Origin: Candidatus Latescibacterota bacterium
GTDB taxonomy: Bacteria; Latescibacterota; UBA2968; GCA-2709665
Length of the DNA: 64,000 nt
Direction: 5' to 3'
Assembly: GCA_965198095.1 (NCBI GenBank)
Contig: OZ240239.1
Span: forward strand, 118,641-182,640
The notes beneath the pieces were generated by a model. It had not been told where the DNA came from and ran no database searches. It saw only the letters and a program-made list of their open reading frames with translations. Positions 19,531-61,191 of the stretch are shown piece by piece (within the stretch, counting starts at the first letter, position 1; each line of letters starts with the position of its first letter). A program made the translations under genes and the position numbers.

Positions 19531-19538
19531 AGCTTACG

Positions 19539-19639
19539 TTCGCCAGCAGGAGCTGGCTCCTACCTTATGAACGGCTTGTGAATATTACCTGATTCCAAAC
19601 GCCGGTAAATCCGGTAGGAGCCGCCTCCCGGCGGCGAAC
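19539..19639. repeat. REPIN (inverted REP doublet), stems GCCAGC/GCTGGC and GCCGCC/GGCGGC
   Basis: TTCGCCAGCAGGAGCTGGCTCCTACC ...46 nt... CCGGTAGGAGCCGCCTCCCGGCGGCGAAC. Same unit as the array at 42353-42967. Confidence 0.85.
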
Positions 19640-19703
19640 ACTTCACCCCGATACTCTCAACCGACGGCCTAGAGCACCCGGATACTTGAGGCTTGGTGCT
19701 GTG

Positions 19704-21534: not shown

Positions 21535-21615
21535 TTCGCCGTCCGGAGACGGCTTTCGGTTGACAGAGACGGCCGCCGTGATCGGATTCGTCGCCGTCTG
21601 GAGACGGATCCTACC
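21535..21615. repeat. Two REP-like hairpins with stem GCCGTC/GACGG(C) in direct orientation
   Basis: TTCGCCGTCCGGAGACGGC (21535-21553) and TCGCCGTCTGGAGACGGATCCTACC (21591-21615). Confidence 0.6.
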
Positions 21616-21722
21616 ATATGAATAGACGTCTGAAACGGTTCAACAACGAACCCACGGTACTCCTGTTCTGATTCCCGGGTGCTCGCCTTCACGATCCACG
21701 AACAACGGTTTTTACGATCCCC

Positions 21723-21751
21723 GGTACCCGTGTTTTGCTTTCCCGGTACCC
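21723..21751. repeat. GGTACC-box copy 4
   Basis: GGTACCCGTGTTTTGCTTTCCCGGTACCC, 17 nt after the stop at 21769. Preceded by CACGATCCACGAACAACGGTTTTTACGATCC. Confidence 0.8.
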
Positions 21752-21768
21752 GAACTAAGCCCTGCTTC

Positions 21769-24243
21769 TCACGATGCCACCCTGAACGCGTATAGCCTCG
21801 CCCCTTCCAGCACCACCTTCAGCCGGACCACCCGCCGGTATACTTCCTCCAGCCGCACCCGCTTCCATCGCACCTCGTGGGCCACGCGGTCTCCCGAGAA
21901 TGGAATACAGTCATCCAGACCCAGCTCCGGAAACAGATTGCCCTCCGCATCCTGCACCTCCACGCGGATGCTGCCGCCCGGGTCGGTCTGTCCGTTCAGG
22001 AGCAGGCGACTCCCTTCCACGACGAGGGGCAGCGTCGTGAACGTTCCTTTGGATCGGATCGGTTCCACGTGCGCGAGCCTGCCCGCCTTGCACTTCGCCA
22101 GGCCGGGCACGACACGGTGCCGCTTCGTCTCCTCGAAAAAGTCCTCCCAGCTCGTGAAAAAGGGCGCGAGCTCGAAGTAGGGGAGCTTGGCCTTGAACGC
22201 TTCCAGCGTGTCGGCAGTGAGATACCCGCCCAGCATATAACGCGTATTTGTCCCCCCGAAGGGGAACCACCACTCCTCTTCCCCGTCGGCGTTCGTGATC
22301 GGCGTGTATTCATTCAGACCGCTGGAGCTGGTATTCCAGCTCCCTATGGGTCCGTTTTCCAGAAGGGGCTTTCGATTCGCCCCGAACTTGCTCCAGTGGA
22401 TCAGGTCCCGGCTCCACAGCAGGTGCTGCCGGTTCTGCTGTGTCGAAAAGTCCCAGTTCAGCAGCGCACCCAGATAGAGCTGGCCGTCCGTGTCGCTCAG
22501 TTCCTTCCCCTCCGGCCTCAGAAACCCGAACCCGTAGAGGGTCGTACCGGGTGGATCGTGTTCGTCCGGTACCGTCTGGTGACGCCGTTCCCAGTTGAAC
22601 CCGTCCCGCGTCCACATCACGGCGCGCGTGCGGATGGCCGCCACGCTGTGCCAGAGGTAAAAGGGCAGCCCCGTGGGCGGATAGGCCGGCGCGTCCGGCC
22701 GGTAGTAATAGAAGAAGGTCTTGCTCTTCCGATCGTAAAACGTGGCCGTGGACCGGCCGCCGGCCTGGAAGAGCGCAAACGGTTCTCCCTCGAACGGATA
22801 GGTGGACGCTCGCTCGTTCGTAGACGTGAGCCTCATGCCGCGCGCGCCGGTCAGGACGGGCCGTCTCGTCAGGGCAAGGAAGGTGTCTCCCCGCCGCTCG
22901 AAGCCCCAGAACTCCCGGTGCTTCGGTTTGAATCCACCCAGGAACTGCTTCGCCGCCTCCATGTTGGCCTTCAGGAAGACCCGGAACACGAAGTTGTCCA
23001 TATCTATCGGTCCGTCCTTCTTGGGATCGTAGAACCGGTAGCGGTACTTCCTCGGAAACGGACGCTCCTTCACGAACGCCGGAAAGCTGTCGAACTCTCC
23101 CGACAACAGGAAATCTTCACCAGACTTGTCCCTCAGAATATTGTTGTTCTTGGATCCCTTGTAGTCCACGATGCCCAGGTCCGGCTTCTCCCACGTCACC
23201 CCATCGTTCGAAACCGTGAGACACAGATACCGGATCGAATACGCCGTGATCGTCGATCGCACACCCATCTTCCACAGCCGTTCGTCCTCGGTAAGCGGAC
23301 CGGCGTAATAGGTGGCGCGAAATTGTCTCGCTTCTTTGTCATACGAGAAAGAGTTGATCTGCAGCTGATCAGGCCCCTCCTCCCAGGGGCGGTCGAGCAC
23401 CGCGATCGGCCCGTCCGACAGGACCTCCAGCTGGTCGGGCGCGTGCTGGAGCCCGGAGGAGGATCCGCAGATCCAGCCGTCCACCATGTACTGGGGCATC
23501 TGCCCGACTCTCAGCGGATTCAACGGGCGCTTCGGCTTGTTGGGCGTCTCCAGGTTGATCTGGCGCACCATGTAGGGCCCCACCGCCTTGCCGCCCTGCT
23601 GGGCCCTCACGCGAAGCCAGAACTCCCCGCGTCCCCATCCCGCCCCGTCGAACGTACACCGCCGTACCTGGCCGTTCAGTTTCAAATCCAGAGGGCCCGC
23701 GAGGCGCTTGTGTCCCTTCGGGTCCACCACATCCACCTTCACCGAGCAGGTCTCTACGCGATCGGGCAGCGTCCGGATCGTGAAGGCCACCTCGGTCTTG
23801 TCGATAAACGCGGCCCGCTCCGGACAACACTCGATGAACTGCCGGAGCGAGTCCACCTGCCCCAGCTTCATCCCGCCGATATCCCCGAAGAAATCGTTCG
23901 CGTCCAGCCTCAGGACGCCCGATCCCACCCGCCTCCCGCCCGCCCTCAGCGTGAGGTCGAACCTGTAGCCACCCAGCGCCCACATCGCTCTCCCCTCGGA
24001 ATCGGTGGCCAGGCTCGGACCATACCGCCCTTCGTCCACGAGCGGATACGTGATCACGACCTCACCGCGGTCGCCCACCCGTTCGGCGTTACCGGTCAGC
24101 TCCTGTTCGAACCCATAGGGCTGCGTCACCTGGACGGTGGCTCGAACAGCCCCCGATTTGAGCCCTGAAGGCCAGCGAAACGTCAGCGCCTGCCTGAAGT
24201 AGCCCCTGTGCTCGAGCTTCAGCCTCAATCTTGACCCATTCAT
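21769..24243 (-). CDS. Large beta-propeller glycoside-hydrolase-like protein with an extra ~290-aa N-terminal region
   Basis: 824 aa. The central and C-terminal part aligns with 51668-53194 and 61192-62712, with repeated S.DG..W blades and a C-terminal ...VRLKVVLEGARLYAFRVAS sandwich. GGAGGAGG lies upstream of the ATG. No signal peptide. Confidence 0.75.
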   Translation of the reverse strand: MNGSRLRLKLEHRGYFRQALTFRWPSGLKSGAVRATVQVTQPYGFEQELTGNAERVGDRGEVVITYPLVDEGRYGPSLATDSEGRAMWALGGYRFDLTLRAGGRRVGSGVLRLDANDFFGDIGGMKLGQVDSLRQFIECCPERAAFIDKTEVAFTIRTLPDRVETCSVKVDVVDPKGHKRLAGPLDLKLNGQVRRCTFDGAGWGRGEFWLRVRAQQGGKAVGPYMVRQINLETPNKPKRPLNPLRVGQMPQYMVDGWICGSSSGLQHAPDQLEVLSDGPIAVLDRPWEEGPDQLQINSFSYDKEARQFRATYYAGPLTEDERLWKMGVRSTITAYSIRYLCLTVSNDGVTWEKPDLGIVDYKGSKNNNILRDKSGEDFLLSGEFDSFPAFVKERPFPRKYRYRFYDPKKDGPIDMDNFVFRVFLKANMEAAKQFLGGFKPKHREFWGFERRGDTFLALTRRPVLTGARGMRLTSTNERASTYPFEGEPFALFQAGGRSTATFYDRKSKTFFYYYRPDAPAYPPTGLPFYLWHSVAAIRTRAVMWTRDGFNWERRHQTVPDEHDPPGTTLYGFGFLRPEGKELSDTDGQLYLGALLNWDFSTQQNRQHLLWSRDLIHWSKFGANRKPLLENGPIGSWNTSSSGLNEYTPITNADGEEEWWFPFGGTNTRYMLGGYLTADTLEAFKAKLPYFELAPFFTSWEDFFEETKRHRVVPGLAKCKAGRLAHVEPIRSKGTFTTLPLVVEGSRLLLNGQTDPGGSIRVEVQDAEGNLFPELGLDDCIPFSGDRVAHEVRWKRVRLEEVYRRVVRLKVVLEGARLYAFRVAS

Positions 24244-31980: not shown

Positions 31981-33258
31981 TCACCAGGTGCCGGCTCTGC
32001 CCGCTTCAGAAGGGCCCCTATAGACGGGCTCGAACGTGTCGTCGTCGTCCGCGCCGAACCCCGTGGGCGGATGCACGACGCGCGACGCGCGTTGCAGGAC
32101 ATAGACCACCTTGAGGCTTGAATTCCGAATCACAACCCAGGCAAGCTGGGCGTCATCCCGGGGTCTCAAGGCCACGCCGCGATTGGGGATGGCTCCGGTC
32201 GTCCATCCGTTCACGAGGGCACGATCCAGGGGGAGGCCCACAGTGCCGGTTTGGTCGATGGACGTAAACCGGCTGCTGTCGTAGGTCGTGTAGTGCAACC
32301 GCCCGGATTCTGCACTTGCATCTACGCGGTCGATCTGAAAGGGAAAGACATCGAAAAAGGAAAGGTCCGGATCGACCTCGACCTCCAGCTCAGCGGAATA
32401 GACGGTCCGCCGGGTCAGGTTCGGGACGTCGAATCGGAGGAGCGACCCATACCGGATGCCGGAGGCCACCATCAGCTGATCGGTCTCCGGACGGTCGTCC
32501 GTGCGCGCTCCCCAGTAGGTGTCGTCAACCGCACCGGTCTCAAATCGGTGTGCCTCTCCGCCAAGGGTAAACAGGAACTCGAGCTTGGGGCGCCGCCCCT
32601 CTGTTCCCGGCCTCGAGGCATCCCCCGACGTGAGCACGGTGAGAAACTCCGATCCGGCCGCCGGATGCAGCATCACCTCCAGAAACGGCGCGGCGGCGTC
32701 GGCATCCAGCGCGTCGTCCAGAATCAGTCCGGGAAGGTCGACCGTCAGGCGGCCGGCGCCATCGTCCGTGACAGTGGCGCCGGGTAACGCCGAAGCCGGA
32801 AGGTCGACGTGTGCGGCAGGATCCCGTCTGCTCACGAACGTGCTCGTTTCATCCCAAACCCCCTCCGGGCGGCTGATTTGCAGGTCCGGGATGCCGCGAC
32901 CGCCACCATCCGCGTGCGTCCGGAGATGCATCCGGAGCGATATCATGACAAGGTCGCGAGCGCTGTTGCCGCCCGCCGCGCGAGCCATGGAATCGGCAGG
33001 CATCCGGAAGCGAAGCAAAGACCTCAACACGATCCCGTTCATCCGCCCAACCCGCAACTCGTCAGACTTCCCGTGGACGAGTGGCACGATGCCCTCGAAC
33101 GTCGACTTACCCTCCGAAAGGGCGAGTGGATCCAGTTCTGTCAGGAGCGGCTCGGACGAGACCTCCGACAGCCTTACGACGTCGCCGGACTTCCCGCAAG
33201 AGACGATGGATGCGAACGCCAGAAGAGGCAGTGCGAGGAGGGATTTTGAGAAGGTCAT
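31981..33258 (-). CDS. Lipoprotein of unknown function with two ..SLLRF(R/D)(M/V)P.. beta-sandwich-like repeats
   Basis: Trimmed to MTFSKSLLALPLLAFASIVSCGK, a lipobox with Cys. The last ~10 codons lie inside the duplicated 3' module, so the true stop is uncertain. Confidence 0.65.
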   Translation of the reverse strand: MTFSKSLLALPLLAFASIVSCGKSGDVVRLSEVSSEPLLTELDPLALSEGKSTFEGIVPLVHGKSDELRVGRMNGIVLRSLLRFRMPADSMARAAGGNSARDLVMISLRMHLRTHADGGGRGIPDLQISRPEGVWDETSTFVSRRDPAAHVDLPASALPGATVTDDGAGRLTVDLPGLILDDALDADAAAPFLEVMLHPAAGSEFLTVLTSGDASRPGTEGRRPKLEFLFTLGGEAHRFETGAVDDTYWGARTDDRPETDQLMVASGIRYGSLLRFDVPNLTRRTVYSAELEVEVDPDLSFFDVFPFQIDRVDASAESGRLHYTTYDSSRFTSIDQTGTVGLPLDRALVNGWTTGAIPNRGVALRPRDDAQLAWVVIRNSSLKVVYVLQRASRVVHPPTGFGADDDDTFEPVYRGPSEAGRAGTW

Positions 33259-33403
33259 GGGTCTTCCGGTGCTGCCGCGTCTTCCGTGAACCTTGAATTC
33301 CCTTCGTAAAGCTACGGAAAAGTGGGAAAAAGTAAAGCCTTCCAGGGGTGGTTCTCCAAACGGAATCGGCATTGGGATGGCATACACACACGTCGTCATC
33401 CGC

Positions 33404-34238
33404 GGCTTCGCCAACAGAGTTGGCGATTGGATTGGCGCACCCTAAGTCGCCGTCTGTGGCTTCGCCAACAGAGTTGGCCATAGGATTGGCACATCTTAAA
33501 TCGCAATCTGTGGCTTCGCCAACAGAGTTGGCGATTGGATTCGTGCACCCTAAATCGCAATCTGTGGCTTCGCCAACAGAGTTGGCTCCTACCGGATTTG
33601 GGACGTTATGACATCGGTGAATCCAATAGGCCCAATAATCCGGTAGGAGCCGTCTCCCGACGGCGAACCATCTGATCGCAGTGTGGTGCCTCTGCTGAAC
33701 CTATGGGTGGCGATTGGATTCGTGCACCCTACGTCGCCGTCTGTGGCTTCGCCAACAGAGTTGGCTCCTACCGGATTCGGGACGTTTTGATATCGGTGAA
33801 TTCAATTCACCGGAAAATACGGTAGGAGCCGTCTCCCGACGGCGAACCATCTGATCGCGGTGTGGTGCCTCTGCTGAACCTATGGGTGGCGATTGGATTG
33901 GCGCACCCTAAGTCGCCGTCCATGGCTTCGCCAACAGAGTTGGCAATTGGATTGGCGCACCCTAAGTCGCCGTCCATGGCTTCGCCAACAGAGTTGGCTC
34001 CTACCGGATTCGGGACGTTTTGATATCGGTGAATTCAATTCACCGGAAAATACGGTAGGAGCCGTCTCCCGACGGCGAACCATCTGATCGCGGTGTGCGC
34101 CTCTGCTGAACCTATGGGTGGCCATAGGATTGGCGCACCCTAAATCGCAATCTGTGGCTTCGCCAACAGAGTTGGCCATGGGATTGGCGCACCCTAAATC
34201 GCAATCTGTGGCTTCGCCAACAGAGTTGGCTCCTACCG
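33404..34238. repeat. Hierarchical repeat array: 9 copies of a 54-nt sub-repeat interleaved with 3.5 REPINs (stems GCCAAC/GTTGGC and GCCGTC/GACGGC)
   Basis: TTCGCCAACAGAGTTGGC occurs at 33407, 33461, 33515, 33569, 33748, 33927, 33981, 34159 and 34213. Full 100-nt REPINs are at 33569-33668, 33748-33847 and 33981-34080. A half REPIN is at 34213-34238. Confidence 0.9.
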
Positions 34239-34341
34239 GATTTGTGGCGTTATGACATTGGCGCTACGGAGCGCAAAATACGTGCCGCCAGCAGCTCGGC
34301 TGCCCGCGGCGTTGCGCGCTTCTTCGTGTCACTCCGCGATA

Positions 34342-34380
34342 CGAAAAACAAGCCGCCCGGAGCGCCTGCTCCGGGCGGCT
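34342..34380 (-). terminator. Rho-independent terminator after the SDR gene
   Basis: 13-bp stem AGCCGCCCGGAGC / GCTCCGGGCGGCT with loop GCCT, followed on the minus strand by TGTTTTTCG. Confidence 0.75.
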
Positions 34381-34418
34381 GCTCATTGCCGCGATATGAT
34401 TTCGCCATTTGGAACCGA

Positions 34419-35192
34419 TCAAACCTGGGTCGTGCCGGCCATGGATCCGCCATCAACCGCGATGGTCTGACCGCTGACGTATCGGGATTCGTCAGAGGCC
34501 AGGTAGACCGCCAACTCGGCGATATCTTCGGGCCGACCGAGCCGCCCCAGGGGGACGGCCGCCGCGTTCACGCTCCGTTTCGCCTCGCCGTCTTCGGTCG
34601 ACGCGTAGTAGCGCGCGAGCATGGGCGTATCGGTCGCGATCGGGCAGATCGCGTTGGCGCGAATGGCCTCCTTCGCGAAGTCGATTGCGAGGGACCGGGT
34701 GAGGGCGGTCACGGCCCCCTTCGAGGCGGCGTACAAGGGCATATCGGGCCGGACCCGCAGCGCGGTGAGCGAGGCGATATTGATGATCGAGCCGCCTCCG
34801 CTCTCGATCATCAGCGGAATAGCCTGTTTGCACACGAGCAGGACCGCCAGGACGTTCAGATTCATCGTGCGATGGAAATCGGCCTCGGCCGTCTCCAGCA
34901 GGGGCTTGAGCTCGCAGATCCCGGCGTTGTTGTCCAGGACGTCCAGTCTTCCATACTCGGACCGAATGGCCGCCACTGACTGCCGCACATCGGCCTCGGA
35001 GGTCACGTCCGCCTCCAAGGCCAAGGCGGTTCCGCCCTGGCTCCGGATCCGGTCCGCGACCTTCGACCCGTTCTGCGCATCGATGTCCACGACCACCACC
35101 TTGGCCCCTTCTCTGGCGAAGGCCAGCGCAGTGGCCTGTCCGATGCCGGCTCCGCCGCCGGTGATCAGCGCAACCTTATTCCGTAAACGCAT
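34419..35192 (-). CDS. Short-chain dehydrogenase/reductase (SDR)
   Basis: [18 protein letters not shown]...NNAG...YAASKGAV, the classical SDR motifs. Start trimmed to the canonical position. Confidence 0.9.
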
Positions 35193-36296: not shown

Positions 36297-36351
36297 GAGC
36301 CTTCCCTCCTTTTGCAGCGTCCCCCGTCCCCGCAAAAGACATGCCGTGTGG

Positions 36352-36439
36352 CACCGGCAGCAAGCTGCCGGTGGATCATGATGAGCCTGTTGTGTTTCTT
36401 AGCGTGAGGAATCTTGCACGGGCAGACAAGCTGCCCGTG
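36352..36439. repeat. Doublet of perfect hairpins CACCGGCAGC-AA-GCTGCCGGTG and CACGGGCAG-ACAAG-CTGCCCGTG
   Basis: Hairpins at 36352-36373 and 36417-36439 with mirrored flanks GTGTGGCA.. and ..TGGCACAC. They lie 56 and 121 nt upstream of the PhyH start at 36296. Confidence 0.7.
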
Positions 36440-36517
36440 GCACACGTGACTGGATTCGCGATCTCACGCGCAGAACCACCGGCGATCCGATTCAGTCTTT
36501 CGAACGACGGTTTTTTC

Positions 36518-36543
36518 GGGACACCTGTTTTGATTTCCGCTAC
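36518..36543. repeat. GGTACC-box copy 6 (degenerate: GGGACACCTGTTTTGATTTCCGCTAC)
   Basis: The central TGTTTTGATTTCC is retained but both GGTACC arms are mutated. Ends 4 nt after the stop at 36548. Preceded by TCGAACGACGGTTTTTT. Confidence 0.55.
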
Positions 36544-36547
36544 TCTC

Positions 36548-41654: not shown

Positions 41655-41805
41655 CAAGCCCGGCAAATCCGGTAGGAGCCTTACCTTCGCCAGCAGGAGC
41701 TGGCTCCTACCTTATGAACGGCTTGTGAGTATTACCTGATTGCAAGCCCGGTGAATCCGGTAGGAGCCGCCTCCCGGCGGCGATCCATTCACGCCGATAC
41801 TCGCC
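41655..41805. repeat. REPIN unit preceded by a truncated half unit, flanking the RAYT 3' side
   Basis: CAAGCCCGGCAAATCCGGTAGGAGCC is joined directly to TTACCTTCGCCAGCAGGAGCTGGCTCCTACC ... CCGGTAGGAGCCGCCTCCCGGCGGCGA. Relative to array units, 37 nt carrying one hairpin are missing at a GCC microhomology. Confidence 0.85.
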
Positions 41806-41888
41806 TTGCTTGATCTTACCAATCCGGGAAAAGACACGAGAACGGCCAATCTTCTGGGGTTGCAACATATCTTTTTCTCACCGGATTT

Positions 41889-42323
41889 TCATGGATGTAT
41901 CCGATTTTCATGGATGTATCCGAGATGTCGAGCAAACGCCTCTTTGTTACGAAGCTTATGATCATAGAACCCGCGCTGCCAGAACCTTCCCGTCCTGCAT
42001 TGTAGTCTGTTGATTCCTCTAGCTGTATGGCTTCCGAATGAAGCCATCACGCTGGAAAGATCCTGATCCTCTCCCAAGGCCACGATCAAATGCAAGTGAT
42101 CAGGCATCAGGACGTATCCTTCACATCTGAGACGCTCATTTTCATGAAGCCAGCGCAAACACCGAACGATGAGCTCCGGCACTTCAGATTCCTCTTTCGG
42201 ATTCATTGGGTCGCGAACCAGTGGACCTGTAGTATCGTCCACGCACTTTGTTATGGAGTAGATGGATCCGGGCAAGGAATTACGCCATTTCCTCAGAGCC
42301 GATTGATGGAACCCTCTTTCCAT
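41889..42323 (-). mobile_element. REP-associated tyrosine transposase (RAYT / TnpA_REP, IS200/IS605-type Y1 HUH family) with a frameshifted 3' end
   Basis: 144 aa. HUH motif YVLMPDHLHLIV and RFWQRGFYDH. The catalytic-Tyr motif GYIHEN is followed by a premature stop. Removing one copy of the 19-bp duplication (41884-41921) extends the frame to TAA at 41816, giving ...YIHENPVRKRYVATPEDWPFSCLFPDW. Visibly lower GC than the neighbouring genes. Confidence 0.85.
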
Positions 42324-42352: not shown

Positions 42353-42967
42353 CTTACCTTCGCCAGCAGGAGCTGGCTCCTACCTGATGAACGGCCTGTG
42401 AGTATTGCCTGATTGCAAGCCCGGTGAATCCGGTAGGAGCCGCCTCCCGGCGGCGAACACTTCACCTCGATCCTCGCCTTACCTTCGCCAGCAGGAGCTG
42501 GCTCCTACCTTTTGAACGGCTTGTGAGTATTGCCTGATTGCAAGCCCGGTAAATCCGGTAAGAGCCGCCTCCCGGCGGCGAACACTTCACCTCGATCCTC
42601 GCCTTACCTTCGCCAGCAGGAGCTGGCTCCTACCTCATGAACGGCTTGTGAGTATTACCTGATTTTTCAAACCCGGTAAATCCGGTAGGAGCCGCCTCCC
42701 GGCGGCGAACACTTCACCTTGATCCTCGCCTTACCTTCGCCAGCAGGAGCTGGCTCCTACCTCATGAACAGCTTGTGAGTATTACCTGATTTCAAACCCG
42801 GTAAATCCGGTAAGAGCCGCCTCCCGGCGGCGAACACTTCACCTCGATCCTCGCCTTACCTTCGCCAGCAGGAGCTGGCTCCTACCTCATGAACAGCTTG
42901 TGAGTATTACCTGATTGCAAGCCCGGTAAATCCGGTAGGAGCCGCCTCCCGGCGGCGAACACTTCAC
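42353..42967. repeat. Tandem array of five REPIN units (period 125-127 nt)
   Basis: Units start at 42353, 42478, 42603, 42730 and 42855. Each unit is TTCGCCAGCAGGAGCTGGCTCCTACC + 47-nt spacer + GGTA(G/A)GAGCCGCCTCCCGGCGGCGAAC + linker. The array starts 29 nt upstream of the RAYT ATG. Confidence 0.95.
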
Positions 42968-43186
42968 TTCGCAGAAAGCAAGTATTGGGTGTGCCGTTTT
43001 GTCGTCAAAAGCCGATCGGAGACTAAGTTGTTGAATTTCACGCACCTGAAGCGAGTCTCGTCGCGGGTGTGGATCGATCTGCAAAAACCGGTCTGGGAAG
43101 ATAGGTAGGTAGGGCTTGAACGCTAAAACGTTCTTGGAGGAAGGAGACAGGATCGGTCGGCTGGCGCGCCCACTCTTGCCTCAAGG

Positions 43187-61051: not shown

Positions 61052-61084
61052 ACGACTCTAATTTTCTTATCACCAGAGTAACAA

Positions 61085-61157
61085 TCGCCGCCGGGAGGCG
61101 GCTCCTACCGGATCAATGAGTGCGATGTATCTGGTAGGAGCCAACTCCCGTTGGCGA
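61085..61157. repeat. Short-spacer REPIN with mixed stems (GCCGCC/GGCGGC and GCCAAC/GTTGGC)
   Basis: TCGCCGCCGGGAGGCGGCTCCTACC ...23 nt... GGTAGGAGCCAACTCCCGTTGGCGA. Confidence 0.85.
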
Positions 61158-61191
61158 CGAAATGACTCACGGTGATTGCATACGGTTTTCC

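Follow-up and report, generated by a model that had tools for sequence, protein, structure and literature searches.

A strain-variable palindromic repeat array in an uncultured Latescibacterota bacterium is probably the home locus of a lost transposase gene

We examined a block of nested repeats in a stretch of 64,000 nucleotides (nt) from Candidatus Latescibacterota bacterium (assembly GCA_965198095.1, contig OZ240239.1, positions 118,641-182,640, forward strand); "the window" below means this whole stretch. The block lies between a gene for a short-chain dehydrogenase/reductase (SDR) and a lipoprotein-like gene. In our reading, to which we give a probability of roughly 0.8, it is the array of repetitive extragenic palindromes (REPs) and inverted REP doublets (REPINs) of a REPtron, the home locus of a REP-associated tyrosine transposase (RAYT) gene that we call RAYT-1, and this gene has been deleted in the window strain. 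The term REPtron denotes a RAYT gene bordered by variable arrays of bacterial interspersed mosaic elements (BIMEs; PMC3333891). Most likely the array is selfish or neutral in nature, presumably with no function for the host.

Results

A two-tiered array of REPs and REPINs

The array is extragenic, in a spacer of 1160 nt between the lipoprotein start (33258) and the SDR stop (34419). Both neighbouring genes are on the minus strand; the array is situated about 145 nt upstream of the start of the lipoprotein-like gene, which has no Pfam match, and downstream of the strong SDR terminator (Table 1). Its basic element is a 21-nt hairpin, H (GGCTTCGCCAACAGAGTTGGC), with a stem of 6-8 bp and the loop AGA. 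Nine copies are present with 0 mismatches, and elsewhere in the 64 kb no match was found even when up to three mismatches were allowed (chance expectation 0). Start-to-start distances of 54, 54, 54, 179, 179, 54, 178 and 54 nt divide the copies into runs of 4, 1, 2 and 2, and Tandem Repeats Finder reported periods of 54, 179 and 233 nt.

In four of the nine copies, H is extended by TCCTACC to a full REP, which we call REP-A (reverse complement GGTAGGA-GCCAAC-TCT-GTTGGC-GAAGCC); the other five are headless and run directly into a 33-nt segment, S. Three of the four full REP-A copies are followed 48 nt on by an inverted partner, REP-B (GGTAGGAGCCGTCTCCCGACGGCGAAC, exact each time; GGTAGGA-GCCGTC-TCCC-GACGGC-GAAC on the minus strand), and make up three REPINs. 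The tetranucleotide GTAG is found at one end of the hairpin in both REP-A and REP-B, and is missing from the five H-only copies of the window. Every REPIN is followed by a linker of 42-43 nt and an S segment. The small unit of 54 nt (headless H plus S) and the larger unit of 176-179 nt (REPIN, linker and S) form the two tiers. As single-stranded DNA the three REPINs fold at -25 to -27 kcal/mol (z = -4.9 to -5.6), with -26.6 kcal/mol and z = -5.5 for REPIN 1, and z = -4.9 on the plus strand and -5.6 on the minus strand for REPIN 2. At the lipoprotein-proximal edge, where a degenerate S copy is found, a repeat-family search listed 33338-33424 in its family D1, at 61% identity to the reference unit.

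An initial interpretation made from the letters of the window (the sequence-only reading) had described a REP/REPIN array with two nested tandem tiers in a 1.16-kb spacer, hairpin runs of 4, 1, 2 and 2, and completion of the last hairpin of each run to a full REP. The nine exact H copies, three REPINs, three linkers and the S segment bear this out, far above chance. Some details needed correction. The three REPINs, given as exact 100-nt copies, do exist, but only REPINs 2 and 3 are identical to each other (over 103 nt), the inner spacer of REPIN 1 being different; the separation between REP arms is 48 nt rather than 46-47 nt; and the conserved 42-nt linker is present three times, measuring 43, 43 and 42 nt with its terminal TGGC.

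Sister alleles carry a RAYT gene within the array

The sequence-only reading had suggested comparing the locus in related genomes. We retrieved sister contigs through the SDR protein from its likelier start (257 amino acids, aa), as other assemblies encode an identical protein, and close SDR variants used as further queries added four contigs. Exact look-ups with the longest SDR open reading frame (ORF; 265 aa) and with the lipoprotein gave no match. The resulting allele set consisted of the window and nine related contigs: seven complete sisters (L005, L006, L007, L019, L020, L021 and L022) and two short Joint Genome Institute contigs, L008 and L009, that end within the array. All nine, from related populations, hold the same array between the same two genes. 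Sister spacers measure 1750-2194 nt, against 1160 nt in the window, while the flanking genes and the set of modules are alike in all, and the flanks are collinear and near-identical between alleles.

All seven complete sister alleles contain a 612-nt unit with a Y1_Tnp gene directly after GGCTCCTACC. This gene is an intact RAYT-1 of 161 aa on the window-equivalent minus strand, where it occupies the position of a REPIN inner spacer, and its TAG stop codon falls within the REP head. The protein has the motifs HVH and YIYENP, corresponding to the HUH motif and to the Y-x-x-x-N-P helix with the catalytic Tyr of Y1 transposases, has precomputed hits to PF01797, and is 55% identical to a second RAYT of the window (RAYT-2, described below); its homologues bear the source names "REP-associated tyrosine transposase" or "RayT". 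Its catalytic activity is a prediction from sequence. A tblastn search did not find RAYT-1 in the 64-kb window.

A cognate RAYT flanked by the same REP variant is therefore a property of seven of seven complete sisters, and also of an outgroup contig, L014, but not of the window allele. Judged by the definition of a REPtron as a tnpA-REP gene bordered on both sides by REP pairs, the sisters are REPtrons. The window has the bordering arrays and no gene, and for this reason we regard its locus as the remnant of a REPtron rather than as a REPtron. Thus a RAYT (TnpA-REP) gene adjoins, in each of the complete sister alleles, what the sequence-only reading had treated as a free-standing curiosity.

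The RAYT unit and the REPIN unit resemble each other. On the 5' side of the RAYT unit the REP-B hairpin is gone (GTTC/GTACC, the slash marking the junction), and the same linker follows as in REPIN units. Next to REP-B, about the first 10 nt (GTATTTTC.GG) are common to the RAYT unit and the REPIN inner spacer, both of which abut the REP-A head on the other side; because of these shared borders, the REPIN unit looks like a gene-deleted RAYT unit.

Unit order varies between strains. If a headless 54-nt unit is written h, a REPIN unit AB, the 612-nt RAYT unit AR and the terminal REP-A simply A, the window reads h h h AB AB h AB h A; L005, h h h AB h AB h AR AB h h h A; L006, h h h h h AB h AR AB h h A; L007, h h h h h AB h AB AR AB h h A; and L019 and L020, h h AB h AB h AB h AR h h AB A. 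The architecture of L021 and L022 is more irregular, with AR present. The ten alleles show nine unit patterns, the sole match being that of L019 with L020, so the repeated amplification proposed by the sequence-only reading is an ongoing process.

Could the array, its copy numbers or the absence of RAYT-1 be products of repeat collapse or mis-joining during assembly? L008 and L009 end inside the array, the end of L008 looks chimeric, and L021 and L022 (21x and 10x coverage according to their names) have irregular spacings that may reflect indel errors. Moreover, a skip from one REP-A to another would silently lose the 612-nt RAYT unit. Against this, other assemblies and samples cross the same architecture, including contigs of 4.29 Mb, 804 kb and 240 kb; L019 and L020, from two different samples, are 1 nt apart over 2050 nt; the flanks agree among alleles as described above; and a second array in the window (620 nt, beside RAYT-2) matches that of L005 unit for unit. 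It is unlikely that the array is artefactual in kind, and we hold an assembly explanation as a whole to be very improbable.

The arrangement is older than the large arrays

The nearest other RAYT, P0002, is 74% identical and is encoded in L014. The gene order there is SDR-RAYT-lipoprotein-like, with gaps of just 241 and 327 nt. They contain each module in one or two copies: a linker with REP-B, a complete REP-A, a segment resembling S, and a single headless hairpin (GCCAAC-TGCC-GTTGGC) at a distance of some 55 nt from REP-A. Across the RAYT from these, a REP-B-type hairpin is likewise headless. Homology of the order h-S-A between L014 and the window is confirmed by alignment, and the sister alleles and L014 have a homologue of the window array's linker 5' of their RAYT gene. 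Around the more distant RAYTs of L015 and L017 (47-53% identity) there are likewise REPs or short tandems of REPINs, but no tier of headless hairpins.

Since L014 keeps both synteny and modules, the comparison indicates that the RAYT is ancestral at this site and that the modules, the headless hairpin among them, predate the split from the L014 lineage. By the same comparison, the large arrays are specific to the lineage of the window and its sisters, and the window allele would represent a secondary loss of the RAYT. The 54-nt unit, described by the sequence-only reading as a satellite that a REP hairpin seeds, was not newly seeded at this locus, for its headless hairpin already has a counterpart in L014.

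Uniform hairpins and mosaic S segments

The modules differ strongly in diversity. Mean pairwise difference is 0 for full REP-A (28 nt), 0.006 for REP-B (27 nt) and 0.0045 for H over all 106 units, 101 of which are identical; it rises to 0.04 in the inner spacer, 0.08 in the linker and 0.22-0.26 in S. In the window alone, 0 of 21 columns vary in H and 13 of 33 in S. The variation of S is concentrated in about 13 dimorphic sites in small linked blocks, and among 78 pairs of S sites, 45 have every one of the four allele combinations. Segment S is a recombinant mosaic, whereas the hairpins are nearly invariant. The tetranucleotide TGGC stands before S in 53 of 55 cases, after hairpins and linkers alike. 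Adjacent S units were not more alike than distant ones (5.8 versus 6.05 differences, p = 0.32), which makes recent local duplication alone too simple an account. A hairpin within S, noticed by eye as pairing of GATTGGATT with AATCGCAATC, was also considered; it holds in some variants and meets uncompensated changes in others, and we rejected it as a conserved feature.

The inner spacer contains a further palindrome. The perfect form CGGTGAATTCAATTCACCG, which the sequence-only reading had noted in two REPIN spacers, is indeed present twice in the window (Table 1), but it is not a conserved feature, as only 4 of 23 REPINs have it exactly. The majority form is CGGTGAATCCAAACACCCG, with CGGTGAATCCAATTCACCCG and CGGTGAATTCAATTCACCCG as intermediates. 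The perfect palindrome needs several joint changes and resembles the outcome of quasi-palindrome correction by template switching. At the equivalent place, L014 has another palindrome, with a GAATTC core.

Constant 21-nt hairpins alternating with variable 33-nt segments at a period of 54 nt, divisible by three, could recall a functional element unrelated to REPs: a CRISPR-like array, a structured RNA gene or an 18-codon coding repeat. Gene callers moreover placed ORFs within some alleles. The would-be spacers are, however, mutually homologous (about 78% identity, a mean difference of 22-26%) rather than unique, and no Cas-related Pfam family was found in any gene called up to 10 kb to either side; these two observations speak against a CRISPR array. 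A coding repeat is disfavoured by 6-11 stop codons in each reading frame across the array and by the 176-179-nt units, which break the frame. The sequence-only reading had itself set a structured RNA of a known family against its interpretation; Rfam gave no match at E <= 1 over 32500-35000 on both strands. Finally, the repeat is the hairpin of the neighbouring RAYT's REP, and unit number is not conserved among strains. Such an element is so improbable that we give it next to no weight.

ORFs of 76-241 aa were called within the array by gene callers or mechanical ORF lists in several assemblies (Table 1), and the gene calls in the spacers of L019 and L020 are unlike despite the single-base difference there. 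Most probably these ORFs are artefacts of annotation that stem from the 54-nt (18-codon) periodicity.

How the array may have grown and lost its gene

We propose the following course of events. The ancestor shared with L014 already had REP-A, an inverted REP-B, the inner spacer, the 42-nt linker, S and a headless hairpin around the RAYT, in one or two copies each. Amplification in the present lineage then took place at two nested levels, that of the 54-nt unit (S plus headless hairpin) and that of the 176-179-nt unit (REPIN, linker and S). Slipped-strand misalignment between the TGGC at the 3' foot of the hairpin and the TGGC at the end of the linker, which delimit the unit, may have produced the first 54-nt duplication. 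Later gain, loss and shuffling of units could be due to unequal exchange or slippage between identical hairpins of 21-28 nt. RAYT-1 could likewise have been removed, without a scar, through such an exchange between the direct repeats on either side of the 612-nt unit. The near-invariance of the REP hairpins would presumably reflect constraint by RAYT recognition, or gene conversion, while S drifts and recombines.

A second route to the same REPtron would give the enzyme a larger part: RAYT-1 itself built the 54- and 176-179-nt units, by cleaving single-stranded DNA at the hairpin foot and rejoining it, along the lines of the primer-extension or rolling-circle models of BIME amplification in Ton-Hoang et al. 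(PMC3333891). E. coli TnpA-REP is described there as cleaving at C/T beside inverted REP (iREP) hairpins and in linkers and as performing strand transfer, and is proposed as the assembler of tandem BIMEs. The headless hairpins of our array stop exactly at the C/T step of the full REP (GTTGGC/TCCTACC), and the REP-B-type hairpin of L014 is cut at the same foot (GAGACGGC/CATGGG), so truncation at the foot recurs. In addition, the most variable array is the one with an intact RAYT in most strains, while the array of RAYT-2 has five units in both strains compared. Yet the partner junction (…GGGTGGC/GATTGG, /CATAGG, /AATTGG) has no C/T step, TGGC microhomology on both sides is a simpler fit to slippage, and a C/T specificity of cleavage is putative for this RAYT. 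RAYT-2 is, moreover, intact in L005, and still the array count there equals that of the window. We therefore favour slippage or unequal exchange over RAYT catalysis as the mechanism of amplification, and consider assembly by RAYT-1 unlikely.

Several observations weigh against the account of slippage and exchange around a lost RAYT-1. The mechanism is read from its end-products alone, and a microhomology of 4 nt is weak by itself; the copy numbers of the window and its absence of RAYT-1 are known from a single assembly. Frequent unequal exchange should homogenise S, yet 13 S sites are dimorphic at intermediate frequency, and S being dimorphic while H is invariant calls for extra constraint or conversion acting on H. 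The headless hairpins are as uniform as full REPs though they are without GTAG; because E. coli TnpA-REP requires GTAG for cleavage (PMC3333891), RAYT recognition is no obvious constraint on them. The H-type REP is also confined to this array within the 64-kb window and the retrieved sister flanks. A scan with the 19-nt core of the hairpin gave four single hits in a genome-representative collection and four in a metagenome collection, about four being the chance estimate for the 596-Gb genome collection; one hit, L001, had no REP tail and no GGTAGGAGCC core nearby. The source species is thus absent from these collections.

These points leave some room for the idea that headless hairpins are kept by selection, or by a hairpin-directed copy-and-correct process independent of the GTAG head, which we rate as unlikely. 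If it were true, the headless hairpins might act as a platform for binding the RAYT or a host protein, or might insulate the lipoprotein promoter from the SDR terminator, and the locus, having natural alleles both with and without RAYT inside a single population, would reveal how REP arrays become amplified and are kept uniform. We retain the reading of the block as the array of a REPtron whose RAYT was lost.

A second RAYT and other REPs in the window

The REP core GGTAGGAGCC occurs 25 times in the window, against 3.7 expected. Among the loci concerned is that of RAYT-2, which matches Pfam Y1_Tnp PF01797 with 32.7 bits (cut-off 23; E = 9e-8). Its best relative of solved structure is E. coli TnpA-REP (PDB 4ER8, E = 1.7e-11), other matched Y1 transposase chains scoring E values of 0.2-0.5, so that it stands nearer to TnpA-REP than to the TnpA of IS200/IS605. 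Each RAYT is paired with its own REP stem, AAC-AGA-GTT for RAYT-1 and AGC-AGGA-GCT for RAYT-2, and a REPIN tandem array adjoins RAYT-2 as well (Table 1); RAYT-adjacent REPIN arrays thus recur in this genome. The stems of the REPs in the window vary by paired changes, while the head (GGTAGGAGCC) and the tail (GGCGA[A/C]) are constant.

RAYT-2 is frameshifted in the window by a perfect 19-bp tandem duplication (GATTTTCATGGATGTATCC twice, 41884-41923), the removal of which restores a 162-aa protein. L005 (2029-3588) has no duplication and an intact RAYT-2 of 162 aa. From the negative tblastn search and the absence of this duplication in L005, the window strain appears to have lost RAYT-1 by deletion and RAYT-2 by frameshift. 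Over the 1.58-kb RAYT-2 region, the window and L005 differ by 21 substitutions and three short indels; the number of units in the RAYT-2 array is stable between them, unlike that of the RAYT-1 array.

Two further observations concern the surroundings. In L006 (672-3910) and L007 (199-1198), extra PhyH paralogues and a 121-aa rve (integrase) fragment lie upstream of the PhyH-SDR pair, and in the window (36336-36547) and L005 a thiamine pyrophosphate (TPP) enzyme directly adjoins PhyH, so strain-level structural variation is found beside the array. The nearest named homologues of the TPP enzyme, from a Planctomycetes metagenome-assembled genome and a Bacillota one, are about 52% identical to it. 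A separate small repeat, which contains the palindrome CCCGGTACCCG/CGGGTACCGGG, lies downstream of genes as 22-nt tandem pairs in both the window and L014, and could represent either a terminator motif or a further family of conserved intergenic repeats.

Table 1. Positions of the array modules and of related features (window coordinates unless a contig is named).
Feature	Position	Strand	Remarks
H starts	33404, 33458, 33512, 33566, 33745, 33924, 33978, 34156, 34210	+
S0, degenerate S copy	33371..33403	+	lipoprotein-proximal array edge, common to all complete alleles
Three headless 54-nt units	33404-33457, 33458-33511, 33512-33565	+	H without TCCTACC/GTAG head, plus S; number allele-dependent
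REPIN 1	33566..33668	+	REP-A 33566-33593 (GGCTTCGCCAACAGAGTTGGCTCCTACC); inner spacer 33594-33641; REP-B 33642-33668 (GGTAGGAGCCGTCTCCCGACGGCGAAC)
Linker 1 + S4	33669..33744	+	linker 33669-33711, ends TGGC; S4 33712-33744
REPIN 2	33745..33847	+	REP-A 33745-33772; palindrome 33794-33812 in inner spacer; REP-B 33821-33847
Linker 2 + S5	33848..33923	+	linker 33848-33890; S5 33891-33923
Headless 54-nt unit	33924..33977	+	H 33924-33944; S6 33945-33977
REPIN 3	33978..34080	+	same as REPIN 2 across 103 nt; palindrome 34027-34045; REP-B 34054-34080
Linker 3 + S7	34081..34155	+	linker 34081-34122, 1 nt shorter; S7 34123-34155; unit length 178
Headless 54-nt unit	34156..34209	+	H 34156-34176, plus S8
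Terminal REP-A singlet + inner-spacer remnant	34210..34283	+	REP-A 34210-34237; no REP-B; edge identical in all alleles
SDR intrinsic terminator	34351..34380	-	13-bp stem with 11 G-C pairs; T-rich tail TGTTTTTCGT; between SDR stop and array
In-array ORF calls, window	33348-33611; 33880-34179	+; -	probable annotation artefacts
In-array ORF calls, L020	5190-5456; 5823-6548		probable annotation artefacts
In-array ORF calls, L005	11877-12140; 12315-12584		probable annotation artefacts
RAYT-2 gene	41816..42323	-	55% identical to RAYT-1; own REP variant; frameshifted here
RAYT-2-type REPIN tandem array	42353..42971	+	period 125 nt, 4.9 copies, beside RAYT-2
REPIN + extra REP head	41671-41785		other side of RAYT-2
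REPIN, RAYT-2-type	19536-19640
REP singlet	21585-21615
Short REPIN	61084-61160		unlike arm stems (GCC-GGGA-GGC, AAC-TCCC-GTT)
CCCGGTACCCG/CGGGTACCGGG repeat	21710-21770; L014 439-476, 3666-3714

Discussion

The locus brings together several published ideas about REPs and RAYTs: REPINs that resemble gene-deleted RAYT units, a RAYT that stays at a fixed syntenic site while the array around it changes by strain, and a RAYT gene whose loss can apparently come about when the repeats on its two sides undergo exchange. With it, the range of GTAG-REP/RAYT systems grows by an uncultured lineage that has been little sampled. In practical terms, the array can serve as a strain-typing marker, and it is a source of contig breaks and spurious ORF calls. 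Alleles with and without RAYT-1, together with a RAYT-2 broken only in the window strain, offer a natural comparison of how far instability and REP uniformity depend on the transposase, though one that is hard to exploit in an uncultured organism. The RAREFAN preprint reports RAYT loss followed by decay of the REPIN population in several species.

One of the closest counterparts is the REPtron of Ton-Hoang et al. (PMC3333891), who found the number of tandem BIMEs to vary between strains and proposed models of amplification. As there, the sisters have a single-copy Y1/HUH RAYT flanked on both sides by its own GTAG-headed inverted REP pairs in tandem, copy number at the locus depends on the strain, and the gene, judged by synteny with L014, appears to be vertically inherited at a fixed site. 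Unlike there, the window allele has no RAYT, the arrays are bigger and nested (54 nt within 176-233 nt), one tier is made up of a hairpin without GTAG in direct repetition, and the host is an uncultured bacterium rather than an enterobacterium.

In Pseudomonas fluorescens SBW25, Bertels and Rainey (2011, PMC3116915) described 16 tandem REPIN clusters of flank-REPIN-flank units, the largest with four REPINs and one REP over more than 700 bp, one cluster adjoining each RAYT, and evenly spaced tandem arrays of single REPs as well. Our array likewise has head-to-tail flank-REPIN-flank units and a RAYT-specific REP variant, and its single-hairpin tier has a parallel in the single-REP arrays. It differs in that the REPIN and single-hairpin tiers intermingle at a single locus, the paired REPs of a REPIN have unlike stems, and the singletons stop short at the hairpin foot.

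BIME-2 and atypical BIME arrays of E. coli are similar in their tandem REP pairs, short linkers, copy-number variation between strains, and conserved REPs set against variable linkers. In BIME-2, however, y and z2 REPs alternate in inverted orientation throughout, and the accounts drawn on here describe no headless direct-repeat tier. With the GTAG-tagged REP super-family (Di Nocera et al. 2013, PMC3733652) our REPs share GTAG at one end of the stem-loop and dimers of several orientations, whereas the reiterated singletons here are without the GTAG tag itself. Loss of the GTAG head in tandem singletons is the sole such detail that we did not find described in the portions of the REP/RAYT literature examined. 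The sequence-only reading had not recognised the array as a described REP or BIME behaviour. Variable BIME arrays bordering a RAYT, tandem REPIN clusters and tandem REP singletons have nevertheless all been published, and on these sources the nested organisation is a combination of behaviours already known.

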